A stretch of DNA of 64,000 nucleotides. Origin: Patescibacteria group bacterium (GTDB lineage: Bacteria > Patescibacteriota > Patescibacteriia > SG8-24 > DYFX01). Within the stretch, counting starts at the first letter, position 1. Every line of letters starts with the position of its first letter. This document shows, piece after piece, positions 6,403-56,890 of this stretch. Where the stretch lies: contig JBAZZB010000003.1 of assembly GCA_041659045.1 (NCBI GenBank), positions 28,212-92,211 of the forward strand, read 5' to 3'. Below the pieces are notes generated by a model that made no database searches, was not told the origin of the DNA, and saw only the letters and a program-made list of their open reading frames with translations. The position numbers were made by a program, and so were the translations under genes.

Positions 6403-6406
6403 AGGG

Positions 6407-6697: not shown

Positions 6698-6698
6698 A

Positions 6699-7433: not shown

Positions 7434-7434
7434 A

Positions 7435-7839
7435 TCAATGTGAGCACGAGGTGTTAGGATCGGACTCACGAGGCTGGGAGAGGGCGGACTTCAGCGCACG
7501 CAATGAAAGCATCGCGCATTTCATGCGCATCGGTCCGACATCGATACCGAGCAACTCTAGGATATCGCGTTCCGAGATTGCCAGCACCTCCGCGAACGGT
7601 CGGCCCTTGATGCGATCCGTCAGCAGAGAAGCGCTCGCCATGCTGACAGCACAACCTTTTCCATCGAATTTCACGTCGGCCACGCGATCGCAGGCATCCA
7701 GTTTCAGAAACAATTCGATCGTGTCGCCACAACTGGGATTCAACTCGCGCGCGCGTCGCGAAGCATCCTCAAGCCGCCCCGCGTTATGCGGATGCTTGTT
7801 GTGATCGAGGATGTTCTCCATGTAGATATTTTCTTCCAT
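7435..7839 (-). CDS. sufU: SufU / IscU-like Fe-S scaffold (NifU N-terminal domain)
   Basis: ...NPSCGDTIELFLK...GKGCAVSMASASLLT... conserved Cys ligands of SufU/IscU. Confidence 0.85.
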   Translation of the reverse strand: MEENIYMENILDHNKHPHNAGRLEDASRRARELNPSCGDTIELFLKLDACDRVADVKFDGKGCAVSMASASLLTDRIKGRPFAEVLAISERDILELLGIDVGPMRMKCAMLSLRALKSALSQPRESDPNTSCSH

Positions 7840-7840
7840 A

Positions 7841-9049
7841 TCAGAGTTTCAGTGTGACCTTGGCTTTTTCTATCGCCACGACGAGTGCTTCAACATCTTC
7901 CTTTCCATTATAGATGCCGAAGCTCGCGCGGCACGTGCCACTCAGACCCAGCTTGCCCATGAGCGGCATCGCGCAATGATGCCCGCCGCGCACGGCCACG
8001 CCTTCGCGATCAAAAAGCGTCGCAAGATCGTGCGGATGCGCACCAGAGACCTCAAACGAAATCACACCGATACGTTCCCCCACTGTCGGACCAACGATCT
8101 TCACGCCTGGAATTGCGGAAAGCTTTTCAAGCGCGTACGCCGTGAGTTCGAGGTCATGCGCTTCGGCAATATCCATACCGATCGCTTCGAGATACTGGAT
8201 TGCCGCACCGAGACCGATCACGCCCGCAATGTTCGGCGTGCCTGCCTCGAATTTCATCGGCGCATCGTTCCAGGTCGAACCTTCGTATTTCACTTCGCGA
8301 ATCATGTCGCCGCCGTATTGCGCGGGTTCCATTTTTTCCAAAAGCGCTTTCTTGCCGTAGAGCACGCCGACACCGGTCGGGCCGTATGCTTTATGAGCGG
8401 AGAACGCCAGGAAATCGCAATCGAGGTCGCGCACGTCGATCTTCATATGAGGAATCGACTGCGCTGCGTCGAGAATCAGAACGGCGCCAACCGCGTGCGC
8501 AAGCGCTGCGAGTTCTTTCGCGGGGTTGACCGCACCGAGCACGTTGGAGGCGTGCACGATCGAAACCGCTTTCGTCTTCGACGTGATGAGCGCACGCGCC
8601 GCCTCCATATCAAGACGATACTCGCTTGTGATCGGAATAAATTTCAAAACGAACCCATGGCGCTTTGCGGCTTCCTGCCACGGCACCAAGTTGGCGTGGT
8701 GTTCCATTTCGGTCAGCACGACTTCGTCGCCAGGACCGAACGTGCGGCCGAGCGAGGTTGCGAGGAGATTCAAAGATTCGGTTGTACCTTTCGAAAAAAC
8801 AATTTCTTCCGGCGCGGCATTCAAAAAATTCGCCACCGTGCCACGCACGGCTTCATAACGTTCAGTTGCCTCCCCCGCCGTCTTGTACATGCCGCGATGC
8901 ACATTGGAGCGAAAATTTTGGTAGTAGTCGTTCATCGCTTCGATGACGGAAACCGGCGTGAGCGACGATGCGGCCGAATCCAAGAACGCCCGCATGTCCA
9001 TGACATGGAGCGAAGGAAAATCTTTTTGGATGACGTTGGGAAGTTGCAT
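7841..9049 (-). CDS. sufS: cysteine desulfurase SufS (class V aminotransferase)
   Basis: ...HANLVPWQ..., ...SAHKAYGPTGVGVLYG... PLP-lysine region and C-terminal ...GGHHCAMPLM.... Start at M11 (MQLPNVIQKDFP) by homology. Confidence 0.9.
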   Translation of the reverse strand: MQLPNVIQKDFPSLHVMDMRAFLDSAASSLTPVSVIEAMNDYYQNFRSNVHRGMYKTAGEATERYEAVRGTVANFLNAAPEEIVFSKGTTESLNLLATSLGRTFGPGDEVVLTEMEHHANLVPWQEAAKRHGFVLKFIPITSEYRLDMEAARALITSKTKAVSIVHASNVLGAVNPAKELAALAHAVGAVLILDAAQSIPHMKIDVRDLDCDFLAFSAHKAYGPTGVGVLYGKKALLEKMEPAQYGGDMIREVKYEGSTWNDAPMKFEAGTPNIAGVIGLGAAIQYLEAIGMDIAEAHDLELTAYALEKLSAIPGVKIVGPTVGERIGVISFEVSGAHPHDLATLFDREGVAVRGGHHCAMPLMGKLGLSGTCRASFGIYNGKEDVEALVVAIEKAKVTLKL

Positions 9050-9050
9050 A

Positions 9051-9806
9051 TCAAGAAAGCTTGGAGAGGTACGGTTCAACGAACGCTTCGATCAACATTG
9101 CTTCCGCGGACGCGCGATCGAGTCCGCGCGACATGAGGTAGAAAAGTTTTTCCGCATCAATCCGGCCGACCGTCGCGGCATGCGAGCAACGCACGTCCTG
9201 GTTTTCGATCTCGAGCATCGGTACGGCGTCGATTTCGGCGGAGTCGGAAAGCAGCAACGTTTCCTCTTTCTGACGACTGACGCAGCCGGGCGCGTTTTTC
9301 TCGACACGCACGAGACCGCGAATAATTGCTTTCGCGTCACCCGAAAGCACGCTGCCAACGTGCAGATTCGAAATCGTGCGCGGCGCGGCGTGAATAATTT
9401 CGTGCTTCACATCAAAGCGCTGGCGATTCGTGCCGCGCACAAGACTCGTCGCTTCGACTTCAGCACCTTCGCCCTCAAGACGCGTGACAAACAACGCGCG
9501 CGAAAATTCCGGCACGGAGCATTCGTCGATCCATTCAAGTTTCGCATTCTTCGCAAGACGTGCTTCGCGACGCACGAATTCAACCGAAGACGTCGCGCGC
9601 GCGACGTATGTGACGCGTGCGCCTTCGCCGATCTCGAGACGAATCTCAAGATCGCGATCGCCTTCAGGATCTTCGACAATGCGCATCGTGGCGTCAGCCG
9701 GAACTTCGATCGTCTTCGTTTGCGCAACCAAAGCCGCCCGGTCGAAACCTTCCGGGTGTTCAGGCATGAAAATGCCGATGCCGTATTTGAGAAGTTTCGT
9801 TGCCAT
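9051..9806 (-). CDS. sufD: SufD, short form (251 aa)
   Basis: C-terminal SufBD signature ...HAATVGRIDAEKLFYLMSRGL...EAFVEPYLSKLS. The N-terminal half typical of proteobacterial SufD is missing. Confidence 0.8.
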   Translation of the reverse strand: MATKLLKYGIGIFMPEHPEGFDRAALVAQTKTIEVPADATMRIVEDPEGDRDLEIRLEIGEGARVTYVARATSSVEFVRREARLAKNAKLEWIDECSVPEFSRALFVTRLEGEGAEVEATSLVRGTNRQRFDVKHEIIHAAPRTISNLHVGSVLSGDAKAIIRGLVRVEKNAPGCVSRQKEETLLLSDSAEIDAVPMLEIENQDVRCSHAATVGRIDAEKLFYLMSRGLDRASAEAMLIEAFVEPYLSKLS

Positions 9807-9807
9807 A

Positions 9808-11199
9808 TCAGCCGACAGAACCTTCCATTTCGAGTTCGATCAGCTTGTTGAGCTCCACCGCGTATTCGAGTGGCAGCGACTTGATGATCGGCTCGACGAA
9901 GCCGCTCACGATCATGCGCATGGCCGCGTCCTGCGAGAGGCCGCGCGACATGAGGTAGAACAACTCTTCCTCGCCGATCTTGCCGACCGTCGCTTCGTGT
10001 GCGACATCGACTTTATCGGTCGTGATTTTCATGAACGGATACGTGTTCGAAACCGAACCATCATCGATCAAGAGCGCATCGCACGCCACGCTCGACTTTG
10101 AGCCTTCTGCGGCCGACGTCGCGCTGACATAGCCGCGATACGAAGAAATGCCGCCGCCTTTCGAGATGCTCTTGGCGCGGATCGTGCTCGTCGTGTTCGG
10201 CGCGGCGTGAATCACTTTCGAACCGGTGTCCTGATTCTGTCCGGGACCAGCAAAAGCAACGCCGAGTGAATGCGACTGCGAACCTTCGCCGCGCAAAATC
10301 GAGCACGGATAGAGCATCGTGACGCCCGAGCCCATGTTGCCGTTCACCCATTCGACGATGCCGTTCTTGTCGACAACCGCGCGCTTGGTGTTCAAGTTGT
10401 AAGTGTTCTTGCTCCAGTTCTCGACGCTTGAATAACGAATGCGCGCGCCTTCGTGCACATGGAGTTCTACGCAACCAGCGTGAATCGAACTCGCGTTGTA
10501 GCGAGGTGCCGAGCAACCTTCGATGTACTGCACCTCCGAGCCTTCGTCGGCAATGATCAGCGTGTGCTCGAACTGACCGCCGCGTTCGGCGTTCATACGG
10601 AAGTAGGCTTGAAGCGGAACGTTCACCTTCACGCCCTTCGGCACATAGATGAAGGTGCCGCCGCTCCAGACCGCCGCGTGCAGCATGATGAACTTATGAT
10701 CGTGCGGCGGGATACAATCCGTCATGAAGTATTTCTTCACGAGCTCCGGATATTTCCGGACGGCTTCATCCATGTTCTCGAAGATGACGCCCTTCTCCTC
10801 CCATTCTTTTTTCAAATTGTGGTAGACGACTTCGGAGTCGTACTGCGCGCCCACACCCGAAAGCGAGTGGCGTTCCGCTTCAGGAATGCCGAGTTTCTCG
10901 AACGTCTCGCGAATCTTGTCCGGCACCGTCGCCCACGACTGCGATTCTTCCGCGTCGGGACGCACGAAATACGTGATCTGCTCGAGATCGAGTTTCGAAA
11001 GGTCAGGCCCCCACGAAGGCGTCGGCGTGCGCTTGAACATCTCGAACGCTTTGAGACGCAGCTTCAGCATCCAATCCGGTTCATTCTTTGACGCCGAAAT
11101 TTCTCGAACCACTTCTTCAGTGAGTCCGAGTTCTGCTGTATGGCGCGTTACGCCTTCGGCTGCTTTGTCGTAGATGTCGCGAAAATCTTTATCGGCCAT
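9808..11199 (-). CDS. sufB: Fe-S cluster assembly protein SufB
   Basis: Full-length SufB signature including ...HEATVGKIGEEELFYLMSRGL.... Start at M19 (MADKDF), 1 nt after the rrf2 stop. Confidence 0.9.
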   Translation of the reverse strand: MADKDFRDIYDKAAEGVTRHTAELGLTEEVVREISASKNEPDWMLKLRLKAFEMFKRTPTPSWGPDLSKLDLEQITYFVRPDAEESQSWATVPDKIRETFEKLGIPEAERHSLSGVGAQYDSEVVYHNLKKEWEEKGVIFENMDEAVRKYPELVKKYFMTDCIPPHDHKFIMLHAAVWSGGTFIYVPKGVKVNVPLQAYFRMNAERGGQFEHTLIIADEGSEVQYIEGCSAPRYNASSIHAGCVELHVHEGARIRYSSVENWSKNTYNLNTKRAVVDKNGIVEWVNGNMGSGVTMLYPCSILRGEGSQSHSLGVAFAGPGQNQDTGSKVIHAAPNTTSTIRAKSISKGGGISSYRGYVSATSAAEGSKSSVACDALLIDDGSVSNTYPFMKITTDKVDVAHEATVGKIGEEELFYLMSRGLSQDAAMRMIVSGFVEPIIKSLPLEYAVELNKLIELEMEGSVG

Positions 11200-11200
11200 A

Positions 11201-11626
11201 TCACTTCGCCACCCCACTCCGCCCTGCGGGCTCCGCGGGGCAAGCGTCGGCAATCGTCGTATTCATAAGCGTCGCCATGACCTGACCCTGCACTTTCGTG
11301 AGGATGCCCGAGTCATGATGATGCGTGAGCGCCGTACACGCTTCGCGTTCCATCGGACCTTCGACGGCGTTCATCACCTCGGCGACCGTCAGCGTTTTCG
11401 CGTCGCGCACCAAGCGATAGCCGCCTGTCGCGCCGCGCACGCCTTCGATCATCTTGGCCCGACGCAATTCACCCGCAACCTCCTCCAAGAACTTACGCGA
11501 CTCCCCACTCTTCTTCGCTACCTCTTCAATCGAAAGAGGCCCCGCATCCTGAGGACGCTGGGCGAGTTCCGAAACGAGGAGAAGGCCGAGCTGGGCCTTG
11601 CGAGTGACTTTAAGAAGGGATTTCAC
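11201..11626 (-). CDS. Rrf2-family transcriptional regulator (IscR/SufR-like)
   Basis: The N-terminus from a GTG at about 11626 (V)KSLLKVTRKAQLGLLLVSELAQ matches the Rrf2 HTH start (cf. MKLSTKGRYA). AGGAA lies 3-4 nt upstream. The track's ATG at 11659 would add 11 aa and consume the promoter. Confidence 0.7.
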   Translation of the reverse strand: MKSLLKVTRKAQLGLLLVSELAQRPQDAGPLSIEEVAKKSGESRKFLEEVAGELRRAKMIEGVRGATGGYRLVRDAKTLTVAEVMNAVEGPMEREACTALTHHHDSGILTKVQGQVMATLMNTTIADACPAEPAGRSGVAK

Positions 11627-28578: not shown

Positions 28579-29564
28579 GGCTTCTTGCTGAAGCTATTGG
28601 TGAACATACGGAAGGTTGTCTTCAGCGCGTTCGGCCAAGGCTCCGTCGGCCCGCCTGCTTCACCTTCGCCGTAGGACTGGACGTATGCGAGACGATAGAT
28701 CTTGCCTTCAAGGTTGATATACGCGATAACGCCGTCTGACGCACGGACACCTTCAAGTCCGGACTTCGTGGAAAATTGCTCAACCTGCGTCGGGGAAACG
28801 CTTGGATTCCTCGTCAGATACCAGTCTAGGACGGATTGCGCGTCGGGATTTTCCTCTTTGCGCACTTCAAGATATTCGAAACTTCCGATCGCGAAAACAT
28901 AGGCATTCCAGAATTCTTGGAAACTACCGCCGCCCGGTGTCAGCACCCTGAATGCATCGTTGGCGTCCGCAAACGGAACGACAAGATTCGCTTCTTCAAG
29001 TTTTGTCGGCTTGAAACCAATTGGATTGTACAGGTTTGTGACTTCGAGGCCGTCTGAGTAGCCGTCGCCGTCCGTGTCGCTGTTCAGAGGACCTGTCTTG
29101 TACATTCCCTCTTCAAAATTCGTCAGTCCATCATTATCCGGATCCAGCGCGTCATCATTCGGCGGCGTCGCTGGCGTGGTTGTGGCGGGTTCCGGCTGAG
29201 GTTGCGGTTCTGGTTGTGGCTGGGGTTCGGGTTGAGGCTGCGGCGTCGGGAGGGTGACTGAAGGCGCAACAGGCTGCGCGGGCGGATCTGGACGAAGGAA
29301 CCACCAAATTGCAAAGCCCATACCGGCCAAAAGCACGACGGCAATAATCGGGATGAGAATCCATTTCTTGCTGCCAGATTCTTTTTTCGGTTTTGGAGGT
29401 TCGTTCGACGCAGGACTTGGCACGATCGCCATCGATGTCGTCGGGACAGGCATGTCTTTCGGCAGCTGCGCCTTTGCCGCCACGCCATAAAACTGTTCGG
29501 GGATCGTGTAGATCACCGGATCTTTCGGGGCGGCGGCGCTTTGCGGTGCTGGCTGCTCGGGCAT
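28575..29564 (-). CDS. membrane-anchored protein with PQPEPQ linker and thrombospondin-type-3-like Ca-binding repeats
   Basis: Single TM (WILIPIIAVVLLAGMGFAIWWF), (PQPE)n linker, DPDNDGLTNFEE and DTDGDGYSDGLE D-x-D-x-DG repeats, and a C-terminal domain of about 150 aa. Track M1 is TTG; first ATG at 29564. ATGA overlap with the ybeY start. Confidence 0.6.
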   Translation of the reverse strand: MPEQPAPQSAAAPKDPVIYTIPEQFYGVAAKAQLPKDMPVPTTSMAIVPSPASNEPPKPKKESGSKKWILIPIIAVVLLAGMGFAIWWFLRPDPPAQPVAPSVTLPTPQPQPEPQPQPEPQPQPEPATTTPATPPNDDALDPDNDGLTNFEEGMYKTGPLNSDTDGDGYSDGLEVTNLYNPIGFKPTKLEEANLVVPFADANDAFRVLTPGGGSFQEFWNAYVFAIGSFEYLEVRKEENPDAQSVLDWYLTRNPSVSPTQVEQFSTKSGLEGVRASDGVIAYINLEGKIYRLAYVQSYGEGEAGGPTEPWPNALKTTFRMFTNSFSKKP

Positions 29565-29579
29565 GGCTTTCAAACGTGG

Positions 29580-30176
29580 TTACGGAGCGGGCGGGATCTG
29601 AAGGAGTTTTCCCGCGCCTTTCGGATTGTAGCCGTTTCTGACTTCGTCGCCGTCTTTGAACGTATCGGCGTCCGTATCAACATTGTTCGGATCCGTCATG
29701 TAGACTTCGACTTCTTCTCGGTCGGAGAGCCCGTCGTTGTCTGTGTCGACCATGCCGGCATTCGTGCCGATTTGACTCTCACGCATATCACTCAGACCAT
29801 CGCCATCGCTATCGATTTCCGGCTGAGGCGGTGTTGGCTGCAGCTCGGGCTGCGGCTGTGGTTGAGGTTCAGGTTGTGGCTGGGGCGTGGGTTGCGGTTC
29901 GGGCGTAGGAAGTTGCACTGCGGGTTCCACAGGAACTTTACTGCCACGAAGCGAGAAGTAGGCTGCTGCGCCGCCGCCGATCAAGACGACGACAAGCACG
30001 AGAATCAGAATCCCCTTCTTGCCGAAAGCGGCTTGCTGCATCACGACACCTTGGCTCGCCGCGACCGGAGCTGCAGCTCCAGGCATCTGCGGAGGAACGT
30101 TCGTCGGTTTTTCGGAAGGAATCTCGGCGAAGATATCAGCCGGTTCGGTTTTGTCGTCGAAGAGGAAGAAGATCAT
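29580..30176 (-). CDS. membrane-anchored protein with PQPEPQ linker and TSP3-like repeats (paralog)
   Basis: TM (ILILVLVVVLIGGGAAAYF), (PQPx)n linker, DSDGDGLSD / DTDNDGLSD / DTDADTFKDGDE repeats. Confidence 0.6.
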   Translation of the reverse strand: MIFFLFDDKTEPADIFAEIPSEKPTNVPPQMPGAAAPVAASQGVVMQQAAFGKKGILILVLVVVLIGGGAAAYFSLRGSKVPVEPAVQLPTPEPQPTPQPQPEPQPQPQPELQPTPPQPEIDSDGDGLSDMRESQIGTNAGMVDTDNDGLSDREEVEVYMTDPNNVDTDADTFKDGDEVRNGYNPKGAGKLLQIPPAP

Positions 30177-39600: not shown

Positions 39601-40923
39601 GCGAAGTTGCACGTCGGTGATCTGCGGATTCTCGACGCACTGGCCGTTCTGGCAGAGACCGGAAGAGCATTGGCTGTTGTCGGTGCAGCTGCCGCCGGTG
39701 CAGGCACCGCATGAACCACCGCAATCGACCGCGACTTCGTCTCCATCGCGTACATTGTTGAAACAGAATTGCGGGCGCACCGTCACACGCACCGCGCTCG
39801 AACGCGCTTCGTCGCCGTCGATGTTGACCGCGCGAGCCGAGAGAGAAACCGTTCTGACCGGTGCTAGGCCTGTGGTGTCCCACACCGACTGGCTCGAATA
39901 CGTTGAAGGCGCGATGTTTTGAACGTTGCCGTCCGCCGTGAAGAAAGCGCCATCCGCCGAATATTCAACCGTCGCGATACCGCTTTCGTCGGTAGCGATC
40001 GCTTGGATCGGCACGAGGTCGCCGGCCGGAACGGACTGGCCGTCGGTCGGGCTGGAAATCGTAATCGTCGGCGGTTCCGTCATGACGGTTTCGCCGGTTC
40101 TGAAACTCCGCGAGCACATCGCGCCGAGGCCACAGCTCACCGTGCGCGGATCAGACGTCGAAGCATTGCGGAGTCCCGCGCGCACCGTGATCTGGTAGTC
40201 GGTGTTTTGTTCGAGACAGCGGCGATCAGCGTTCGGTGCCGGGCACGGCGTTACCGGACGCAAACGAATCGTAAAATTTTCAACAACGGGTTCGTAGTCG
40301 ACGCTCGTGCGCGTTGTGCCTTCAACCTTCTCAAGAAGAATGTTGGCGCGAATGTTGGTCGCGTCATCGGTCGGCGCGGCGCTGAAGGTCACGGCCGCCG
40401 TGACGTCGTATTTCGGAAGCGAGCCGCTCGGCTGAATCGCCGTCGGTCGGAAAGCACCACCGGAACCGCCACCAAAACCGCCTCCCCCGCCTCCGCCGCC
40501 GCCAGGACCGCCACCGCCAGGGCCACCCGTCGTCGCACTGATCAGCGAACTCAGAACGTAGGAAACGATCGCGAAGGCCGACATGATAATGACGAGTCCG
40601 ATCACCGCGCCCGAGAGCGTTTTCTTCGCGCGCGTGATTTTGGTCTCATCCCCCGCCGCCGTCATCCAAGTGAAACCCGCGTACAAAACAAGAAGCAGTG
40701 CGATCGTGCCGAGAAGGCCGAGCCCTACGCGAATGATGCGAGCGATCGTGATGCGAATGTCGGTCGTGCCGGTTCCAAGCTCCGCGCCAATTTGGCCCGG
40801 AAGAATCTCGTTCGAGGTCACGCCCTGCGCGTTTACCACGCCATGAGACGCAAACCACAAGCACGGCGCGAGAAGCGCCAGGCTGATGATCCATGATCGA
40901 TGACGTCGGAAGAACGCGCGCAT
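30661..40923 (-). CDS. giant secreted/surface protein (3420 aa): pilin-like two-helix N-terminal module, Gly-rich linker, IPT/TIG-like and Ig-like domains, at least 15 Cys-rich CGNG...GE.CD repeats
   Basis: Single uninterrupted ORF in the track. N-terminus has a signal peptide, two hydrophobic helices and a poly-Gly run. IPT/TIG-like units (e.g. PQITDVQLRDGRPGNLVTITGDRFG). Repeats such as CGNGSTGVGEACDDGNTQDGDGCSSRCVLE resemble the Myxococcus-type cysteine-rich repeat. Confidence 0.8.
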   Translation of the reverse strand: MRAFFRRHRSWIISLALLAPCLWFASHGVVNAQGVTSNEILPGQIGAELGTGTTDIRITIARIIRVGLGLLGTIALLLVLYAGFTWMTAAGDETKITRAKKTLSGAVIGLVIIMSAFAIVSYVLSSLISATTGGPGGGGPGGGGGGGGGFGGGSGGAFRPTAIQPSGSLPKYDVTAAVTFSAAPTDDATNIRANILLEKVEGTTRTSVDYEPVVENFTIRLRPVTPCPAPNADRRCLEQNTDYQITVRAGLRNASTSDPRTVSCGLGAMCSRSFRTGETVMTEPPTITISSPTDGQSVPAGDLVPIQAIATDESGIATVEYSADGAFFTADGNVQNIAPSTYSSQSVWDTTGLAPVRTVSLSARAVNIDGDEARSSAVRVTVRPQFCFNNVRDGDEVAVDCGGSCGACTGGSCTDNSQCSSGLCQNGQCVENPQITDVQLRDGRPGNLVTITGDRFGSTAGTVTFLGTAAAGDDQVATVAQCANAWSDNRIVVLVPQGAVTGPIRVAASGGRQDATNDAYGPIITDFQVNDVARPGICSVAPASVKTGNTVVVTGLAFGAAQGDSRVQITRAGADCSQIQDWTTAAEASQVSPWSETSFSPTIPNVETDFDGSNFLLRVTVAGQPSNTACLRVEPPEAGTEPRVEFITPEDGSVGTYVSLFGSNFGSGGTVRFRNAAGEAVGDISFPAQCAAGYWTNASVTVKVPARFTTPADTAVALGAYNVTVVRSDGRVSNAIPFTINTDPLTPGLCRVDPDNGPIGTAVTLYGDGFGTISGADLPAFITAHPDAVRFNDNINASSIGQWQSSSIAASVPDGATTGPVRVRTFVGATPAESNGVNFQIRDCRESGGDASCGSGRSCCDDGACRASCGAAAAAGGFAWQFSTGPIPVFPIVMENATCQATAPSAMPSPNPFKGMTDVCTDMGTMTARFSLPMDPATFNAANVVFEACGTGATISTTCSAVAGAGAPSLLDYDTDGRSQLVLPVNGLAPNTWYRLTIRDQVRSLGTAERGAQVLDGNFDGRAGGAYVTSFKTGAGPCVISGVDVQPTSALIAAADETKDYQAFPLSSRCIILSCAGRTVNWASTDPGKATIVSLGGSRQCEAVATPVSETDPGPPIQIRSTVDGFADSGLLTVDYANPRVVEYGPHDCNEACVNTVGFAYFNTPMAESGPSSILSNVRLYRCRNESCLTFEGEVPLAPNYNAPARLLSFGNVALAPNTWYRAVILGTAQSTSQAPLTGLNYSGNAFSWIFRTRLSGDPCGPQSVTLAPQQTTLRYIGEVSPITAMPLSSPDTCAANGQMLNASSYNWAWSKAQNPASPVSIRLLPDVPPGTLLNTNPILPAGCSTNCLMTGSQPAGTPSCGNGTLERGEACDTPGLNGCNANCLSTGNTLTNGCGDSTVQADRGEECDAGAANGTAAAGCTTSCLLVGSTPGLSACGNGSTGVGEACDDGNTQDGDGCSSRCVLEGSRQNVYVCGNGLLETPGEQCDYILGAGGLATQLLIAGRPPAALGATDERNPTRPNFACGQSCLLRGNPVTCTAGTNCCGNGVIEPAKGENCDAAAKNGDASSGCSTRCTRTGSDPELRAYCGDTVISMQPADPLTNAQNGGGEECEALALDANIDPMQVIEARNQCDARNNCSASVTAAIGTVSGQGSVNVECSCRADSDCSAFGPNLSCGAGACCFPRPDAPDINPKGGNECRNVQISVEFGEEMNTGSLQGGLVVESCPSHAFNEKGPRSWFARAASSVGRFFRSLVGMEASASHICAPIEGAFTHVNVTAPDASVRTISTFAPKQMLSPNRLYRVTARGGATGVKTIKGVGYPEGANTVQDFTTGSDVCRFDVVQTSPATELIQDSAIPLTITATAMTDRGGRLEAISPVPGVYDWSWSWANIPESATVGPILDMTAVAGAPSTIVQAKKGLNGQEQVAATARITTDTALTPTTAGQDKVGKSTITVMLCQMPWPRRDVSTGAWAPYVDPQTHFEFYYCRDNAGAALPELMSAPTQGQSVGGSGLLRFCAATTDFSQSRACTTNADCNAGDTCRSKDLLYRFQSEWKVSDAIGVRVYENSDRLTPQEWYVAQRFSGKTQSATVDGYMAIKDERTVYIGAADKYGDPDLRSYIYVFAFNDHADPRTAEIFNRLVSNINFNTNLVPSDRVTNVCKNAAGELLHLTAENTAPITCSSNLDCDRALPNGPAGMRCDADKDKIRRDMRRWQDMRVIEQSLETSREQTGFYPKLESGSFVRGFTTSKWPSWSQQLGGAGSVVDPINAFNRCEAFGSECSISRVACSVNSDCTGGAGDVCRATFEAETCYNDKIGIFACPANSHVYQYRAIGGIDYRMAVDFEYVTYQWLGTSCSSKPSAFACDAALGCSWVPSGPTTGSCQTRITISPVCSGQPSTAPRACLATGASCTSSSQCAPQDACMPVGVPLVGPAAGGACGNGLLEGTEECEVGMTRNVACASGGQDFETCNAACTWQVQTACPGAAACGNGSLESFAGESCDDGAQNGQYGRCRSGSLGCVKRCVNIAKRASFDGNCADGSCDLGQACSTNSDCSGLPYPSVCTDRMNFCGDGVKNGSEVCDDGARNGEYGFCAWDCRGPGPRCGDGSTNGGEQCDANQTSTQGVCVPTGFSLVDTNTAPRDFASCARTSDCATGETCSLCAATTGGLPQTRTKSCKAATEPVGDACTFNDWSICRPSGACGNGVVEGAEQCDAGAANSPNGTCLATCRLNVCNDGFVRTGVEQCDNGTANGVLCTPQYGSVCNYCKNDCSIETISGAFCGDRTISAPPETCDPGPVTAWCSRTYQNPSDTSGVKGCTTNNDCLPGVCRNYPGASTSTSAAPASSTFARSDVEIPMFGPLGEAARRFAGSIVTFATCGPGECNAGVPGDTTPPAIGAITTAPTSPTTNDSVVITVSDVTDAAALVDNIDIYLTTAAVQVLRTTCRFNPRLATAACSVNVGQLSAGIHTITINAFDGNGNMSARTQNLVVTTATTPPDRADTGFDGTGLELDPGTYAPYTGTGTAAPEGAPCRAAGDCAAGQYCQGGEGQCIAYNTQCQPEPYTNTQAAATARKCKVNGRLCTSDAECGANGPCVAYRLDGSCNYCSNACFGTNAKSAAFCGDGVKQGLFGEQCDGQGDPEARGQGTTYVCRNDCVYDPNGGYCGDNTIQSTYGEVCDTNRFAGGAAPSCASQGAGTAGQVLCSRGCGLYTGGCDNGTLLPGDFRFKISWPTPHTAANEVDLYVKAVYSSGPLAGQTRYFGWKDGSPDTRYVGNGNFSTDHIQLFWDVTGGTHATDPEIMVLSTQSLPQGTYHVFANGGSCFVDGNYGLAPLFDRNTGWWKGASSTIKGNSIFTIEAGSAASVSGITTGTTRTLTSVSDISGNPCMWYIGRIDKTASSTEGRFTLKNKYVNRADGPNAND

Positions 40924-40926
40924 AGG

Positions 40927-42708
40927 TTATGGGAGGAAGCCGCAAGCGACCTGTGAAGGCACGCCATTGCAGCAATACGGTTCAGTTCCGGTACAGACCG
41001 TCTGGCCGCCGCCTGGGTAGAAGCAGTTCTGGCGCAAATCGCGCAGGCCGGAGGTGAGGTTGATGGCGTACGGCTGGTTGATCGACAGAAGATCGTGATC
41101 AATGATGCCTTTCGTTTGATCTGGATCACCACCAACGACGGAAGAAATCGCTTCGGTCTCGATCGAGTAGTTCGTCGGGGCACCATTCGCTCCCGGCACG
41201 AGCCTGGCATTATCCGTCGTGAAGCTCGTCGAGCTCATGAGTTTCGAGAACGTCACCGCCATCGCGAGATCGCGCGCGATGTTGCCCTGCAGCACCGCCG
41301 GTTCCTGAGAGACAACTTTCGGCGGCACGAGATCGATCTCGTTGGACGTGCGGAAGTCAGACGTGTAGTCGTCATCGGGAGAACCTTGCGCCGTACCGTT
41401 GCCGTTACCATCGAGCGCGTTACCCGCCATGTCGGTGATGCCGTTGGGAGGATAGATGCCGAGCGGCGGAGTCGATGTCAGCGCGTCGGTGCGCACGCGT
41501 ACGTTGATTTGTTGGTTGCCTGGGAGGCAGAACACTTCTTCGCCGCAAGAGTTCGTGCCGCAAGCTTCGTTGGTGTGGAATTCGACGGTGCGATAGGCGT
41601 TACCGATCTGCTGCACGCCCGGAACGACGTTGCCGCCCGTGCGCGTGATCGAGAGGCCGGAGGTCACACTGACCGGATCAACCGCTTCATCGAACGTCAC
41701 CTGGACCAGCGAGTTGCGCGGCACGCCACTCGCGCCGTCGTTCGGGATGACGTAGGAAACTTTCGGCGGCGTAAGGTCGAGCACTGTTGAAACCTGGAAC
41801 TCCCAGAGATACCCGGAGTTGAAAGTGCCCGTGAAAGCCGGAGCGCCTCCTTCGCGGCGCACGCCGTCCGTACCACCGCGGAGACCGATCGTATAGAAGA
41901 CGTTTTCTGATGGGCTGCCGAAGCAGTTCGTCGGACAATTGCGCTGCACAAACGTCACGCTGCGACCATCAGCGGAAACAGCGACGTCGATATCGGCAGA
42001 CGTCAGGCTCTGTGAGAATTTTTGCGCGAATTGGTTCGACGAAGTAACGTCAGCGGATTTTGAAATCGCGACCGTTGCGTTCGCGCCACCAACGACGATC
42101 GAAGCAGGGTCGATGCGTTGCTTGAATGTGACGACGACACGCGTGTTGCGCGCGACACCTGTCGCGTTGCGATTCGGATAATGGCTCTCAATAATACCGT
42201 TACCGAGCGCGCCAGCCGGGCAGGTTGCCGAAAGGCCGATGCACGCACGATCGTCCGGCGCGCTGGAGCCGCTGCCCGGGCCTCCCCCGCCGGGGCCGCC
42301 GCCTTCAGCGAGCAAACGACTGATGACAAACGAGGTGATCGCAAAAGCAGACAACATGATGACCAACCCGATGACGGCGGACGTCAGGATTTTCTTGGCG
42401 CGATCGACCTTCTCGGGTTCGCCGGCGGCTGTCATCCAAATGAAGCCGGCGTACAAAATAAGGAGAAGCGCGATCGTGCCGAGGAAACCGAAGAATGCGC
42501 GAATAATACGGGCAATCGTCACGCGAATGTCGCCCGTGCCTGTTCCAATAACGTTTCCAAGTTCCGTCGGCAACACTTCATTGGCCGTCACCTGCGCTTG
42601 CGCCAGATGTGCAAAAGCGAAGGACGCAAAAACCACCAACACGAAACTGGCGACCGTGAAGGTGGCTTTAACGAGTACTTGGGAGAGTGACTTCCTTCCT
42701 GAGAGCAT
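40927..42708 (-). CDS. secreted protein (593 aa) with the same pilin-like N-terminal module followed by Ig-like domains
   Basis: About 70 % identity to the giant protein over the first 130 aa or so (...DIRVTIARIIR...GTIALLL.LYAGF.WMTAAG...RAKK.L..AVIGLVI..SAFAI.S.V.S.L..GGPGGGGPG). Ends 3 nt before the giant gene's start. Confidence 0.75.
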   Translation of the reverse strand: MLSGRKSLSQVLVKATFTVASFVLVVFASFAFAHLAQAQVTANEVLPTELGNVIGTGTGDIRVTIARIIRAFFGFLGTIALLLILYAGFIWMTAAGEPEKVDRAKKILTSAVIGLVIMLSAFAITSFVISRLLAEGGGPGGGGPGSGSSAPDDRACIGLSATCPAGALGNGIIESHYPNRNATGVARNTRVVVTFKQRIDPASIVVGGANATVAISKSADVTSSNQFAQKFSQSLTSADIDVAVSADGRSVTFVQRNCPTNCFGSPSENVFYTIGLRGGTDGVRREGGAPAFTGTFNSGYLWEFQVSTVLDLTPPKVSYVIPNDGASGVPRNSLVQVTFDEAVDPVSVTSGLSITRTGGNVVPGVQQIGNAYRTVEFHTNEACGTNSCGEEVFCLPGNQQINVRVRTDALTSTPPLGIYPPNGITDMAGNALDGNGNGTAQGSPDDDYTSDFRTSNEIDLVPPKVVSQEPAVLQGNIARDLAMAVTFSKLMSSTSFTTDNARLVPGANGAPTNYSIETEAISSVVGGDPDQTKGIIDHDLLSINQPYAINLTSGLRDLRQNCFYPGGGQTVCTGTEPYCCNGVPSQVACGFLP

Positions 42709-42736: not shown

Positions 42737-43192
42737 CTACGCTTTGTTTTGCAAGAACTCTTTGACCGCTTTGCCGACCGAGTTGCCGTCGGCTTTTCCT
42801 TTCAGTTCCTTCATGACCTCACCCATGAGGCGTCCGTAGGCAGCTTCTCCGGAGAGTCCGAGTTCAGCGGCTTTTTTGGCCACAGCGGCTTGGACTTCTT
42901 CTTCGGAGCACTGCGCGGGAAGGAACGTCGTGAGAAGCGCGAGTTCGACTTTCGTCGACTCGGCGAGATCCTGACGATCCGCTTTCTCGAAGTCCGAGAG
43001 CGCATCGCGCAGTTTTTTGACCTCGCGTCCGATGACCTCGAGAGCTTCTTCGTCGTTCAACTCTTTGGTTTGCTTGTCGATTTCGACGTTTTTCATCGCC
43101 GCACGGAGCATGCGGAAGGTCGAGACCGCCGAAGCGTCCTTGGCCTTCATTGCTTCCATGAACCGTTTTTCGATGTCGCTTCGGAGGGACAT
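42737..43192 (-). CDS. GatB/YqeY domain protein
   Basis: 151 aa; ...EEALEVIGREVKKLRDALSDFEKA...AEL...GKADGNSVGKAVKEFL matches the YqeY family. Confidence 0.85.
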   Translation of the reverse strand: MSLRSDIEKRFMEAMKAKDASAVSTFRMLRAAMKNVEIDKQTKELNDEEALEVIGREVKKLRDALSDFEKADRQDLAESTKVELALLTTFLPAQCSEEEVQAAVAKKAAELGLSGEAAYGRLMGEVMKELKGKADGNSVGKAVKEFLQNKA

Positions 43193-43236
43193 GTGGGTTT
43201 CACTAGGACCGGGTTCCGGTTTCAGCCGGAGGCGGT

Positions 43237-43482
43237 TTAACGGCGGCGCTTTTGCTTCAGGTCTTCTTCCTTCAACTTGCCGCTTTTGAGCAGATACTCG
43301 CGACGAGAGGCCAGGAACTGGCGGCGGAGCGCGGCGTCGCGCTGGCCATTCTTGTTCTTTTCAGCCGTGTGAAAACGAGTTTTCTTGGCTTGCAGAACGC
43401 GGCCGGACTGCTGAATGCGGCGGCTGAAACGACGAAGCAGAGCTTCAAAGCTCTCTCCCTTTTTGCGTTTGACTTCAACCAC
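43237..43482 (-). CDS. rpsU: 30S ribosomal protein S21
   Basis: (M)VEVKRKKGESFEALLRRFSRRIQQSGRVLQAKKTRFHTAEKNKN...; GTG start with GGAAGG 8 nt upstream. Confidence 0.85.
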   Translation of the reverse strand: MVEVKRKKGESFEALLRRFSRRIQQSGRVLQAKKTRFHTAEKNKNGQRDAALRRQFLASRREYLLKSGKLKEEDLKQKRRR

Positions 43483-43606
43483 AACAATACACCTTCCTTT
43501 CTACTTAAAAATAGTGAGACCGGGTCTCAGATATAAGATAGCAAGACTGTCGAATAAGGTCAACTTTGGAAGAAACGGGGCTGTCACAGTCTTTTTAGGC
43601 CGATAT

Positions 43607-43936
43607 TTACGCTGTTCCCCCGCCATTACCCTCCCTGCCTCTCCACCCCAGCAAGTACAGCAAGAACAAGGCACAGAAGTAGAAAGTCGTAAAATCAATG
43701 ATGAGACCGAACCAAAGGAGCTCGGTGGGGTTCTCCCATGGAGACGAGAATCGATAGAGGTGGGGAACGGTAAAATCAATCGCGGTGATGTCCTGTCGAA
43801 CAAAGTTGACCGGAAAGCCTTTTCCGACAGACCTCATTTCCCCTCTGCTTTGCAGAGTTATTGGCAACAACAGCTGCAGAAGCATAATCGCCACAGCGGC
43901 TATTGTTGCGAGTAGGTTCTTTGGTTTCACAAACAC
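43607..43936 (-). CDS. possible small membrane protein in the lower-GC insertion
   Basis: 109-aa ORF with two hydrophobic segments; lies in the AT-richer region next to the transposase. Weak. Confidence 0.25.
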   Translation of the reverse strand: MFVKPKNLLATIAAVAIMLLQLLLPITLQSRGEMRSVGKGFPVNFVRQDITAIDFTVPHLYRFSSPWENPTELLWFGLIIDFTTFYFCALFLLYLLGWRGREGNGGGTA

Positions 43937-44015
43937 GCAAAACGATAAACGGAAACAAACTCTTGATTCAGTACATGGTCAAAAGAACTTAACCAATGTT
44001 ACCTCTAGAGTCAAC

Positions 44016-44270
44016 CTATTTTTGTTCCTTTTTCAAGCCACTCATCAAGAGAAGACCTGAAACCAAGATCAACACCTCCTGTATCACAAGCACGTTCATT
44101 TTTCTGTTCTCTAAATGAGAGAAGTAATCAGGAGCTTCTTGAAAGTCATAACCATTAAGATTGTCCGAACGCCAGCTGTTGTACCAAACCTCATCGTGGC
44201 GAGAGAAGTTAAACCAAAGAGCAGTTACTGTGATAAACGCGATAGCAAACCTAACGTTAATCTTGCTCAT
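44016..44270 (-). CDS. possible small membrane protein in the lower-GC insertion
   Basis: About 84 aa from MSKINVRFAIAFITVTALWF... with a C-terminal TM. Weak. Confidence 0.25.
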   Translation of the reverse strand: MSKINVRFAIAFITVTALWFNFSRHDEVWYNSWRSDNLNGYDFQEAPDYFSHLENRKMNVLVIQEVLILVSGLLLMSGLKKEQK

Positions 44271-44289
44271 AGGAAAGTTATACACTTAG

Positions 44290-44351
44290 TATCCGTGCCT
44301 GACACCAGAGGGACAGCTTGTATCCGTGCCTGTCACCAGAGGGACAGCTTG
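44290..44351. repeat. two tandem 31-bp REP-like direct repeats
   Basis: TATCCGTGCCTGACACCAGAGGGACAGCTTG twice with 1 mismatch, immediately downstream of the transposase stop. Confidence 0.6.
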
Positions 44352-44378
44352 GATAGCATATCACGTGGGCTTTCAGGA

Positions 44379-44933
44379 TCAGACGGGGCGCGTTCGTGTG
44401 ATGGACTGGTGATACGCCTCCTGCCGATCTTCATTCGTGCGCCCCAATGTCGCATAGAAAGGATCGATCGTGACGAGATTGTCGCGCTCTCCAAGCGCGT
44501 AGGTTTTGTAGCTCGAATGTTTCCATTCCTCCGGCGTGCGTACCAACGCGGCACGAACCGGGTTCATCTCAATGTAGTTCCCGCAGGCGAAAAGGTAGGC
44601 GTCGGAACCGATCGGCAGACTCTTGTATCTTCCCTGCCAGGTATGGCCAACCCGCTTGTAGAGCCGATGGTGGCGTTTGGAATAGGTGCCTTGGACCCAT
44701 TGCATGAATACCGATAGCTGTTCGGCTTTTCCGACCAGAAGATGTGCGTGGTTCGGCATGAGCACATAGTGGTAGATGGCTACGCCGAACATGCCTTTGG
44801 CGGCCAATAGGAGGTCGTAGTAGGCGTCGTAGTCATCCGCGTCATGAAAGACGCGCATGCGATTGTTGCCGCGTACGATCAAGTGGTACACACCTTCATC
44901 GGTCACGAGTCCTGAACGTGGAATCCGCGGCAT
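44379..44933 (-). CDS. IS200/IS605-family Y1 (HUH) tyrosine transposase, RAYT-like
   Basis: 184 aa; HUH motif ...YVLMPNHAHLLV..., catalytic Tyr region ...GHTWQGRYKSL..., typical size. Confidence 0.85.
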   Translation of the reverse strand: MPRIPRSGLVTDEGVYHLIVRGNNRMRVFHDADDYDAYYDLLLAAKGMFGVAIYHYVLMPNHAHLLVGKAEQLSVFMQWVQGTYSKRHHRLYKRVGHTWQGRYKSLPIGSDAYLFACGNYIEMNPVRAALVRTPEEWKHSSYKTYALGERDNLVTIDPFYATLGRTNEDRQEAYHQSITRTRPV

Positions 44934-44979
44934 ATATCATGCCGCCTACAACAGATCTCTCTATTCACGCAAGTCTAAG

Positions 44980-45007
44980 GTGTCCCTTTGGTGTCAGGCA
45001 CGGACAC
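44980..45007. repeat. inverted copy of the REP-like repeat
   Basis: GTGTCCCTTTGGTGTCAGGCACGGACAC; its reverse complement matches the left repeats with 2 mismatches over about 25 nt. The ends form a GTGTCC/GGACAC hairpin. Confidence 0.55.
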
Positions 45008-45073
45008 TTAATACATAGCATGGCTTTACGCTTGGGTATAAAAAACCCCCGACATCACATCGGGGGAGTTTTT

Positions 45074-46636
45074 TTATTCCTCGTCTTTCTTCTTCTTGTC
45101 CTTATCGTCCCCTTCTTCTTCCTCTTCGTCGACTTTCATCGCTTCTTCCGCGAGGAGCGGTTCTTCCGGTTCCGGCGGCGGGGGCGGGGTGATTTTTGGC
45201 GGGGCGGGTTGGGCGAGCTTTTTCTTGAGCTCGATCGCGCACTTCTTGAAGTCAACGATTTCCTGGATGCCCGAGTCCATGTCGCGGATCAGGGCGGTGC
45301 CGTCGAGCACTTCCTTTTGTCCGAGGATCACGGTGAAGCGGACGCCCATGCGGTTGGCGATTTCAAGCTGTTGCTTGAGCGCATCGCGCGAGAAGCTTTC
45401 GGCTACGCGGACGCCGTCTTTGCGGAGGGCGTTGAAGAGTGCGAGCGTCTTGCGGCGCGCGGGTTCTCCGAGCTGGGCGACGAACACATCCGGCGTGTGG
45501 ATTTCAGGAACCGGAACGCTCTTGTCTTTCAAGGCGAGGATGATGCGCTCGATGCCCCACGAGAAGCCGACAGCCGGCGTGGCGGTGCCTCCGAGCGTTT
45601 CGATCAAGCCGTCGTAGCGTCCGCCCGCGGCGAGCGCAGACTGCGAAGCCTGGGATTCGGAATCGGCAGCAAGCACGACTTCGAAGACGGTGTGGCTGTA
45701 GTAATCCAAACCGCGCACGAGGTGCGGCTGGAGCTGGTACGGCACCTCGAGCTCGTCGAGATACTCGAGGACGCGGATGAAGTGGTTTTTCGATTCTTCG
45801 TTCAAGAAATCGACGATCTGCGGCGCTTCAGCTTTGACCGCGACGCAACCCTCTTCCTTGCAGTCGAGGACGCGCAGCGGATTGCGCTGGAGACGCTTCT
45901 TGCAGTTCTCGCAAATCTGCGAGCGCTTGCTGCGGTAGTAGTTGACCAGCTCGTTCTTGTAGGCCTCGCGCGAAGGAACGTCGCCGATCGAGTTGACCAG
46001 GACGAGCGCGTCGAGTCCGATCTCTTTGAAGAGAGCGTGTGCCGCGAAGATGAGGTTAGCGTCGATGACAGGGTGCTTGTCGCCGAAAACATCGAGGCCG
46101 GCTTGGGTGAACTGGCGGTAGCGGCCGGACTGCGGACGTTCGTGGCGGAAGACGCGGCCCCAGGTGAACCATTTGATTGGTTGCGGCTGGTTCCACATGC
46201 CGTGGTTGACGTAGGCGCGCGCGAGCGGAGCGGTGAGCTCCGGGCGAAGCGTCATTGATTCGCCGCCTTGGTCGACAAACGAATACAATTCTTTTTCAAC
46301 AATGTCCGTTTGCTTGCCGACGCCGCGCACGAAAAGCGCGGTCTCTTCAAGCGTCGGAGTGTCGACGCGTTCAAAACCAAAACCGCTTGCGAGCGATTCG
46401 ACGGCATTGCGAATAAGCGTCCAGAATTTCTGTTCGCCAGGCAAGACGTCTTTCATGCCGCGCAGGAGGTTCGGGGGCGGTGAGGTGCGCTTCGGCTTCG
46501 GGGCCTCGCCCTCGGGTGCCGGAACGGCTGCGACCGGTTTTACGCCGGCGGCGGACACGCCTTTGACGGGCGGGATCATCTTTGCGGGCTTGTCCCCCGT
46601 AGCCTTGGCGGAGGGGGATTTTTTGGTCTTAGGCAT
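45074..46636 (-). CDS. hisS: histidine--tRNA ligase with Lys/Pro-rich N-terminal and poly-acidic C-terminal extensions
   Basis: Class II core from ...LRGMKDVLPGEQKFW... through the anticodon-binding domain. Roughly 60 extra N-terminal residues (KKSPSAKATGDKPAK...APKPKRTSPPP) and a C-terminal ...PPPPPEPEEPLLAEE...DEEEEEGDDKDKKKKDEE tail. Confidence 0.9.
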   Translation of the reverse strand: MPKTKKSPSAKATGDKPAKMIPPVKGVSAAGVKPVAAVPAPEGEAPKPKRTSPPPNLLRGMKDVLPGEQKFWTLIRNAVESLASGFGFERVDTPTLEETALFVRGVGKQTDIVEKELYSFVDQGGESMTLRPELTAPLARAYVNHGMWNQPQPIKWFTWGRVFRHERPQSGRYRQFTQAGLDVFGDKHPVIDANLIFAAHALFKEIGLDALVLVNSIGDVPSREAYKNELVNYYRSKRSQICENCKKRLQRNPLRVLDCKEEGCVAVKAEAPQIVDFLNEESKNHFIRVLEYLDELEVPYQLQPHLVRGLDYYSHTVFEVVLAADSESQASQSALAAGGRYDGLIETLGGTATPAVGFSWGIERIILALKDKSVPVPEIHTPDVFVAQLGEPARRKTLALFNALRKDGVRVAESFSRDALKQQLEIANRMGVRFTVILGQKEVLDGTALIRDMDSGIQEIVDFKKCAIELKKKLAQPAPPKITPPPPPEPEEPLLAEEAMKVDEEEEEGDDKDKKKKDEE

Positions 46637-55543: not shown

Positions 55544-56890
55544 CTAGGCCGGACGCTTGGATTCGTCGAAGGCGTGGGCTTCAAAAACCGAGACGAGGAA
55601 TTCCAAAACAGCGCGCGGGTCTTCGGCGTAGACGCGGTTCATCATCATGGCGACGCCGGTGATGCCAAACGCGCGATCAAGCGGGTCGGTTGAGAGCGTG
55701 CCTTTCTTTTCAAAATCGCGCTTGGCGTACGCCAAAAGTTTCCGGAGTTCAGGACGATCAGCGACGCCTAAACGCATGGCCAATGTTGCAGACGCGCACT
55801 CGCCACGGCGTTCAACGAGATAGATTCCATCCTTCATCAGATCGTCCGGTATTTTTCCAGAGGCCATTTCACCACCAAACACAACCTCTGCCTCGGCAAC
55901 GCCTGGGTAGAGTTTTGCGCCGTGCGTGCGCAACAAATAGACGGCACAAGCGGCGTCCGGCATGACTTTCGCCGGCATAAGAAGCGTCTTGATGGCGATC
56001 GGTTCGACTGCGGCCTTGGGAGCAACGGGTACCGCAACCGGTTCTGGTTTTTTTTCTTCAATCACGGGTTTCGGAGCCTCGACGACCGGTTTCGGAGTTT
56101 CGCCAACAACTTTCGGAGCTTCAGGAATCGGGATAGCCATTCCAACAATCGGAGACGGTGTCGGTGCGGGCGCGACCGGTTTCGGTTCTTCAACAACGGG
56201 CTTCGGAGTCTCAACAACCGGTTTCGGCATTTCAACGACAGCTGCCGGCGCTTCAACTTTCAACACCGGTGTTTCAATGATCGGTTTTTTTTCTTCAACA
56301 ACGGGCTTCGGTACCTCGACAACGGGCTTGGGTGCTTCAGCAACAGCCGCTGTCTCTTCAACAAATACGTGCGTCGACGAGTTCCAGAAAAAATGGCGCC
56401 AGCTTTTTCCGTCAAAACCAACAAATGCTAAACGACCCTTCGCTTCGAACGGCTGCTTGAGCGGTCCGCGCTTCGGCTTCTCAAGCGAGAGCGGATCGAC
56501 GCCACCGATGGTGAGATGCAAGTCACGGCAATTTTTCGAGGCGTCATAGAACGACGCGCCGACGACGCGGCCTTTGAGATCGCCTGCTGATCGTGCACCA
56601 CCTGGGGACGGCGAAAAGTAGGCGTAGGTGCCCGGCGTGCTTTCGACGATGCCGTAGCCATCGAAGGCAAGCGTTGCTTCGGCCAACGAGGTTCCTGTTT
56701 CAGATTCCGTTCTGGCAACCAGTTCGTTCACCGCATCGAGTTCGACGGATTCAAAAGACGCTACCAGAAGATGGTATTCGCGTTCTCCGCGTTTTTCGAT
56801 GCCCTGGCTGCGCAGCGTTTTAACTGCCGAATGCGCTTCGATCAGTTCCGGCGCAAGATCGTAGCCGAGCCAGCTTTTGGTGAAGGTCAT
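55544..56890 (-). CDS. hypothetical protein with central PEVK-like (PKPVVE)n tandem repeat linker
   Basis: Start moved to ATG 56890 (MTFTKSWLG); track M1 is TTG. About 10 copies of (E/A/T)PKPVVE(E/T/A) between two globular regions. Confidence 0.5.
   Translation of the reverse strand: MTFTKSWLGYDLAPELIEAHSAVKTLRSQGIEKRGEREYHLLVASFESVELDAVNELVARTESETGTSLAEATLAFDGYGIVESTPGTYAYFSPSPGGARSAGDLKGRVVGASFYDASKNCRDLHLTIGGVDPLSLEKPKRGPLKQPFEAKGRLAFVGFDGKSWRHFFWNSSTHVFVEETAAVAEAPKPVVEVPKPVVEEKKPIIETPVLKVEAPAAVVEMPKPVVETPKPVVEEPKPVAPAPTPSPIVGMAIPIPEAPKVVGETPKPVVEAPKPVIEEKKPEPVAVPVAPKAAVEPIAIKTLLMPAKVMPDAACAVYLLRTHGAKLYPGVAEAEVVFGGEMASGKIPDDLMKDGIYLVERRGECASATLAMRLGVADRPELRKLLAYAKRDFEKKGTLSTDPLDRAFGITGVAMMMNRVYAEDPRAVLEFLVSVFEAHAFDESKRPA
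55960..56350. repeat. coding tandem repeat (about 24-30-nt period) encoding PKPVVE units
   Basis: Repeated ggtttcggag(c/t)(c/t)tc(g/a)ac(g/a)ac... units on the plus strand. A coding low-complexity repeat, not a CRISPR array. Confidence 0.5.

Follow-up and report, generated by a model that had tools for sequence, protein, structure and literature searches.

Between the genes rpsU and hisS, in a 64,000-nucleotide stretch of genome from a Patescibacteria group bacterium (contig JBAZZB010000003.1; the whole stretch is called the window below), lies a gene for a 184-aa HUH/Y1 enzyme bracketed by repeats of ~31 bp. What kind of element does this arrangement represent? The initial annotation read it as a RAYT (REP-associated tyrosine transposase) accompanied by repetitive extragenic palindromic (REP) sequences. 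We find that one half of this reading holds, a TnpAREP-like gene between inverted repeat copies, and that the other does not: the repeats belong to the terminal inverted type and are not REPs. The locus is most likely a TIRtron, that is, a RAYT-like HUH/Y1 gene whose cognate sites would be the ~31-bp repeats that end its own 685-bp unit. Coordinates are positions in the window unless prefixed by a locus number (L002, L003 etc.).

Identity of the HUH/Y1 enzyme

The gene occupies positions 44379-44933 on the minus strand, and its product matches Pfam Y1_Tnp (PF01797) with 53 bits; both the reverse-strand HUH/Y1 reading frame and its neighbours rpsU and hisS had been correctly recognized at the outset. 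Among the NCBIfam models, REP_Tyr_transpos (NF047646, the RAYT model) scored 69.7 bits versus 17.8 bits for transpos_IS200, for which the cut-off is 55 bits. A profile built from 63 homologues matched E. coli TnpAREP (PDB 4ER8) at E=6e-12 over residues 1-143, and ISDra2 TnpA at 6e-5. Note that a PDB search with the single sequence missed 4ER8, which was found only by the family profile. Foldseek, run with an AlphaFold (AF2) model of mean pLDDT 92.5, again returned 4ER8 as the best solved match (TM 0.64/0.71; 18% identity in the structural alignment), followed by the ISDra2, IS608 and IS200 transposases. The profile check thus bears out the RAYT-type identity that had been proposed.

The HUH motif is formed by H62-A63-H64 (NHAH; family consensus NHVH) and aligns with the HMH of 4ER8. 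Further motifs are W99-Q100, GNYIEMNP with Y120, and S140-S141. Residues H62, H64, Y120, E122, N124 and P125, among others, are invariant across the 63 homologues. In the profile alignment Y120 falls on Y115 of 4ER8, which is described as the tyrosine of the class-2 Y-x3-NP motif (PMC6006769). The predicted catalytic tyrosine is Y120, in YIEMNP. The initial annotation had quoted GRYKSL, but the tyrosine of that motif is replaced by Phe both in E. coli TnpAREP and in a 60%-identical relative (locus L003, in the complete genome CP129476.1), and the invariant tyrosine is Y120. E. coli TnpAREP is reported to read the GTAG of REPs through E100, H101 and R104 (PMC6006769); the corresponding positions here are S, L and G.

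The presence of both HUH and Y-x3-NP (H62-A-H64, Y120-IEM-N124-P125) is the signature of class 2. Within this class, Table 1 of PMC6006769 gives NHVH or NH[YF]H, W[EQ], YIELNP and SS in the proximal tail as the motifs of subclass 2.1, and lists this subclass without REPs. The window protein carries the set as NHAH, WQ, YIEMNP and S140-S141. According to that source, subclass 2.1 is the same as Bertels Group 1 and probably corresponds to the TIRYT of Di Nocera et al. 2013; TIRYT genes are described as having flanking repeats that often contain a GGGGWSAS motif (PMC3733652). The repeats of the window are inverted, 31-41 bp long, bear such a motif and are not REPs. The motif set and the absence of REPs therefore point to subclass 2.1, and we predict the protein to be a RAYT-like class 2 Y1 enzyme that matches subclass 2.1, Group 1 and TIRYT as these are described. 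It aligns to residues 1-174 of 237-aa relatives, the distal C-terminal domain being absent, and all Patescibacteria homologues are 180-195 aa long. A scan of viral contigs returned two distant relatives only.

A repeat-bounded unit of 685 bp

Downstream of the gene, two tandem 31-bp repeats occupy 44290-44351 on the plus strand, as initially annotated, with one difference between them. The inner copy (44321-44351) ends the 685-bp unit common to relatives and the outer one (44290-44320, TATCCGTGCCTGACACCAGAGGGACAGCTTG) is an extra tandem copy. The upstream terminal inverted repeat lies at 44977-45007 on the minus strand and reads GTGTCCGTGCCTGACACCAAAGGGACACCTT in gene orientation. This inverted copy was correctly located in the initial annotation, but the two mismatches ascribed to it are really 3/31 differences by eye in the best register, or 4/31 in the register first used; within the 23-nt core there is a single mismatch. 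Careful alignment also upheld the inverted orientation of the flanks, as the symmetry reaches 41 nt at 83% complementarity (44279-44319 / 44977-45017). None of 100 shuffles of the window gave any such repeat match. The window repeats contain the motif as AGGGACAC / AGGGACAG, with the upstream repeat carrying AGGGACAC; AGGGACAS matches GGGGWSAS at 7/8 positions. The repeats of L003, L023 and L028 have GGGGTCAG or GGGGACAG, and the inner repeat end always bears RGGGWSAS.

The description of these sequences as REP-like did not stand up: no significant hairpin, no GT[AG]G foot and no dispersal within the 64 kb were found. Folded as single-stranded DNA, none of the repeat copies formed a significant hairpin (z +0.3 to -2.0 versus shuffles). 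A single repeat gave -5.6 kcal/mol with z = -1.9, and the tandem pair z = -0.8 and +0.3. The repeats start at the 5' end with GTAT or GTGT; one GTAG is present in the leader beside the start-codon hairpin and is unrepeated. As for a target-site duplication, a TAAGTG direct repeat at the unit ends was considered, but the extended inverted repeat accounts for it better; none was detected in L002 or L021.

The boundaries of the unit became apparent from its close relatives. The Y1 genes of L002 and L021 are 89% and 84% identical to the window gene and lie in unrelated gene contexts. Their nucleotide homology to the window (80-83% identity) spans exactly from outer repeat end to outer repeat end and stops at 44319/44320, defining a unit of 685 bp (window 44320-45003) that occurs in three unrelated contexts. 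More broadly, an upstream repeat and an inverted copy no further than about 70 nt past the stop codon were present at eight of the nine loci examined (the window, L021, L002, L022, L003, L023, L024 and L028); the ninth, L034, showed another arrangement. The distance from the start of the upstream repeat to the start codon is about 50-165 nt, the closest relatives having about 70 nt. Repeat sequence shifts with protein lineage, from GTATCCGTGCCTGACACC...AGGGACAG in the window to GTATCGGTACCTGGTACC...GGGGTCAGGTGAG in L003.

Repeat number around the gene varies. Tandem or stuttered copies occur in the window (two on the 3' side), in L023 (two on both sides) and in L002 (partial stutters on the 5' side), and solo copies in L003 (9248-9270), L008 and L002 (5552-5590). 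The identical proteins of two more distant relatives were found on 12 and 17 contigs, which come from different samples, and always in one context each. The unit looks low-copy, mostly stable and occasionally relocating, which fits reports on Group 1 RAYTs, for which low abundance of flanking 16-mers and some duplication and transfer are described (PMC5581495).

Several further features of the repeat surroundings were recorded. In L002, a 130-aa open reading frame (ORF; 5037-5429) sits between same-orientation repeats at 4890-4923 and 5552-5590, and the outermost inverted pair encloses the Y1 gene and one passenger ORF. In L028 (a 46%-identical relative), a 50-bp direct repeat, 90% identical between copies and holding a T-run and TTGACA, flanks the whole unit (2894-2943, 3660-3709); the same is seen in L029-L033, and strains also differ by a 480-bp indel with a roughly 145-aa ORF just upstream. 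In the window, a 24-nt palindrome, AGCAAACCTAACGTTAATCTTGCT, lies just outside the outer repeat. Two contigs of Logan assembly SRR18595301 (L001, L043) break at this palindrome with ~27 nt overlap (44244-44270), and the L023 contig also ends within tandem repeats, 74 nt beyond its Y1 gene.

A conserved leader (44934-44976, minus strand) separates the upstream repeat from the gene and has CTTGCGTG at 44973-44966 and TGTTGTAG at 44953-44946. In the closer relatives the leader consists of CTTGC(G/A)TG, about 16 nt, TGTTGTAG and then a hairpin with the start codon in its 3' arm or loop (L003 9983-10025; L024 at about 9890-9930), the stem sequences varying by lineage. It is kept in these closer relatives only and is absent in the more distant L028 and L034. 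The window hairpin (44927-44945) has 7 bp with the ATG in the 3' arm (DNA z = -3.5, RNA z = -1.2). That of L003 is strong (11 bp, RNA z = -5.8) and that of L024 moderate, while L022, L023, L028 and L034 have a weak hairpin or none. The start-codon hairpin is probably an expression brake that keeps enzyme levels low, although the evidence for this is thin. IS200 carries a comparable stem-loop over its ribosome-binding site. GTAG and start-codon hairpin together were also considered as a conserved REP-like site, and this candidate was rejected: the combination is convincing in L003 only and absent in L028 and L034.

The hisS-rpsU locus and the abundance of the repeat

The closest proteins and contigs to the window are from Patescibacteria, and the related complete genome CP129476.1 (1.167 Mb) is syntenic with it at this locus (L003). 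By blastn, nucleotide identity in the flanks is 81-86%, with the alignment ending at 43529 towards rpsU and resuming at 45063 towards hisS. Between these points the window has 1.53 kb and CP129476.1 has 5.97 kb of other content. The comparison confirms that the stretch annotated at 43483-45060 corresponds to a real variable segment, and sets its boundaries at 43530-45062. Next to rpsU, L003 retains at 11212-11313 the left repeat, the leader and the ~10 first codons of a window-type gene, with 91% identity to window 45009-44908. Since repeat, leader and first codons are kept at the orthologous locus, the unit was already there in the common ancestor.

At 650 bp from the remnant lies an intact second unit (9927-10581), which belongs to the 60%-identical lineage and has repeats of its own (type GTATCGGTACCTGGTACCCAGGTGCCAGGTGAG). 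This one locus therefore holds two unit lineages and a remnant, and in addition the solo window-type repeat at 9248-9270, which is inverted and adjoins a perfect CCTGGCAC/GTGCCAGG hairpin (about 9206-9229). Besides unit, solo repeat and remnant, the L003 spot (5447-11419) contains ~4 kb of unrelated genes, coding for proteins of 156 aa, 420 aa (faint YD-shell match), 239 aa and 196 aa, a DUF2283 protein and one of 86 aa. When rpsU was used to look for a sister strain with the site empty, nothing but the same sample came up.

How abundant is the repeat outside the unit? Its core occurs three times in the 64 kb, always at the Y1 gene, and, one chance word aside, the rest of the window shares no 13-mer with the unit. 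In CP129476.1 there are two copies, both in the same hisS-rpsU locus. Recurrence, whose absence the initial annotation had itself named as grounds for refutation, was thus found neither in the window's remaining 63 kb nor away from this locus in CP129476.1. Assuming random placement in a genome of ~1 Mb, we estimate that the lack of any extra copy in 64 kb speaks against a total above roughly 50. A dispersal scan with GTRCCTGWCACCARAGGGAC as query, covering one genome per prokaryotic species plus metagenome contigs, gave six genome loci and 11 metagenome loci, roughly the number expected by chance according to our estimate. Clearly non-random were the Patescibacteria copies and, in L010 and L016, palindromic doublets. 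One solo intergenic copy was in a metagenome-assembled genome (MAG) of Minisyncoccota (L008). None of the 11 metagenome matches (0/11) lay next to a Y1 gene.

In these doublets the core GTGCCTG(T/G)CACCAAAGGGACA is arranged head to head with a spacing of 3-4 nt, at L016 5895-5940 and 8622-8667 (within 2.7 kb) and at L010 145-190. They resemble a REPIN-style family made from the same motif; a Y1 gene is absent from the available stretches of both contigs.

The remainder of the variable segment was analyzed separately. Every gene in 42737-46636 is on the minus strand: YqeY (42737-43192; Pfam 140 bits), rpsU (43237-43482), which forms one conserved flank of the segment, two genes for small proteins with two transmembrane segments, ORF109 (43607-43936) and ORF89 (44016-44285, or probably rather from 44270, giving 84 aa), then the Y1 gene, and hisS (45074-46636) as the conserved flank on the other side. 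The intrinsic terminator of hisS (45036-45066, minus strand) lies directly upstream of the upstream repeat. The drop in GC content reported by the initial annotation is real (49.2% for 43530-45062 versus 57.9% for the whole window) but uneven. It comes from 43530-44289 with the two small ORFs (44.2%; ORF89 alone 40%) and not from the transposase unit, which has 55.0%.

Both small ORFs exist as annotated. The suggestion that they are cargo of the element is not borne out: both are located outside the repeats, and the window contains no remnant of a repeat beyond them. Homologues on other contigs (56-61% identity for ORF109, 64-67% for ORF89) occur at loci without any Y1 gene, with the two never paired with each other. 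ORF109 and ORF89 showed no similarity to the small ORFs beside the Y1 genes of L003, L021 and L002. Because their homologues stand at loci lacking a Y1 gene, the two are real genes that neighbour the unit in a variable spot and are not cargo. The ORF89 homologue in L040 adjoins an IS1595-type DDE transposase, a Peptidase_M78 protein and an SLFN/AlbA_2-like fragment, a neighbourhood (3197-5518) that looks mobile or defence-like.

Elsewhere in the window, other repeats were noted. A 173-nt direct repeat of 72% identity (40649-40821 and 42419-42591, spacing 1770 nt) has its second copy within a 593-aa ORF (40927-42708) and its first just past the ORF end; counterparts of this ORF in L003 and L043 bear T4SS_pilin and Big_5 domains. 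Imperfect repeats with a 21-nt period (GGTTTCGG...CAAC units) run through 56042-56362, with an 84-nt register in seven overlapping copies, and probably encode a repetitive protein segment. Repeats of the GGTTGNGG type are found at 29186-29933.

Competing explanations and known systems

As a TIRtron, the locus would work as follows. By homology with TnpAREP and IS608 TnpA, H62 and H64 would bind a divalent metal, and Y120 would form a 5'-phosphotyrosyl link in the course of cleaving and religating single-stranded DNA, either at the repeats or next to them. Such activity may occasionally move the whole unit and duplicate or shed repeat copies. The relocation, repeat duplication and solo repeats seen among the relatives would fit this activity without proving it. 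Unlike in REP/REPIN systems, the repeats are not multiplied through the genome, as far as scanned. Several points weigh against this interpretation. The equivalog cut-off of REP_Tyr_transpos, 80 bits, is not reached. The protein has 184 aa and no distal C-terminal domain, whereas an HTH-like (helix-turn-helix-like) domain at this position and a median of about 238 aa are described as typical of subclass 2.1. The middle residue of the HUH motif is Ala, outside the residues given for the class in the published description. The placement in subclass 2.1 reflects motif comparison with a published table, not a reference tree. The count in the organism's own genome covers 64 kb only, with which a dispersed family of roughly <50 copies is compatible. 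Finally, no subclass 2.1 enzyme is known from biochemistry to act on its repeats.

The classical REPtron, in which a domesticated RAYT disperses the REP or REPIN sequences that flank it in many extragenic copies, is an improbable description of the locus. It would explain why an inverted repeat pair surrounds a TnpAREP-like gene, why solo cores exist in L003, L008 and L002, and why doublets of the core occur twice within 2.7 kb on the unrelated metagenome contig L016. However, the repeat has no off-locus copy in the 64 kb and two copies in the 1.17-Mb relative, single repeats fold not significantly better than shuffles (z -0.8 to -2.0) and start with GTAT/GTGT, and the replacement of E100, H101 and R104 by S, L and G (PMC6006769) speaks against a REPtron, as does the description of subclass 2.1 without REPs. 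There is even less to recommend an autonomous, actively transposing IS200/IS605-type element whose TnpA uses subterminal hairpins, for which the chance seems slim. Y-x3-NP in place of Y-x3-Q, an IS200 score of 17.8 bits against a cut-off of 55, the preference of profile and fold for TnpAREP, ends that are inverted repeats, and the lack of tnpB and of a second copy in the 64 kb all count against it. The relatives' identical proteins always lie in one context, and the remnant at the orthologous locus, between flanks 81-86% identical, argues for long residence. The Pfam Y1_Tnp match, the occurrence of the unit in three unrelated contexts at 80-83% identity and the variable region itself are what such an element would predict.

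It is highly improbable that the enzyme has nothing to do with the repeats and that these are palindromes of chance or regulatory origin (a terminator or an operator). The position of the upstream repeat just after the hisS terminator and the start-codon hairpin in the leader agree with this explanation, but the shuffles gave no match in 100, and the comparative data already refute it: the repeat pair moves with the gene into other contexts and changes with protein lineage. We also considered a bolder reading, in which the terminal repeats act as landing pads and make the hisS-rpsU spot a hotspot of gene exchange. This idea, which we regard as unlikely, arises because the CP129476.1 spot has a remnant, a solo repeat, a second unit and ~4 kb of unrelated genes, and because the 130-aa ORF of L002 sits between two same-orientation repeats. 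If it were true, with the Y1 enzyme integrating single-stranded DNA at the repeats, TIRtrons would serve the reduced genomes of the candidate phyla radiation (CPR) as a small system for cassette capture.

A gene labelled merely 'transposase' in public MAGs may now be described as TIRYT-type, with defined ends, predicted catalytic residues and a 685-bp unit. This would carry the TIRtron arrangement, as published, into Patescibacteria, where its protein is short and lacks the distal C-terminal domain. No new mechanism is revealed, the class having been described already. The unit in three contexts, the decayed orthologous copy and the repeats that co-vary with the protein provide a clean comparative set for biochemistry on how subclass 2.1 enzymes treat their repeats.

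With the IS200/IS605 TnpA proteins (IS608, ISDra2), the window enzyme shares the HUH/Y1 fold and, presumably, the chemistry of single-strand cutting and rejoining. It differs in having Y-x3-NP and not Y-x3-Q, inverted terminal repeats and not same-strand subterminal hairpins, no tnpB-like ORF near the gene and no second copy in the 64 kb.

E. coli TnpAREP and its REPtron (4ER8; subclass 2.2, Group 2) are closer. TnpAREP is the best solved relative by both sequence and fold, its HUH and Tyr align with those of the window protein, the gene likewise stands between inverted copies of what would be its cognate repeat, and there is one gene copy in the 64 kb here. In contrast to E. coli, the window has no GTAG-footed hairpin REPs and the regions scanned have no multi-copy population of REPs or bacterial interspersed mosaic elements (BIMEs), and the GTAG-reading residues are not kept.

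The published TIRtron/TIRYT systems (PMC3733652; PMC6006769; PMC5581495) differ from the window, as far as they are described there, in protein length (median 238 aa, compared to 184 aa without the distal HTH-like domain), in the motif (AGGGACAS here, 7/8) and in the HUH middle residue (Ala here), and Patescibacteria are not among the phyla that these descriptions report for the subclasses. What they have in common with the window is the arrangement itself: a Y1 gene within long terminal inverted repeats that are unlike GTAG REPs, a GGGGWSAS-type motif whose distance to the coding sequence is fixed, few repeat copies (for the window, in the 64 kb counted), and a protein with the motifs NHxH, WQ, YIE(L/M)NP and SS.

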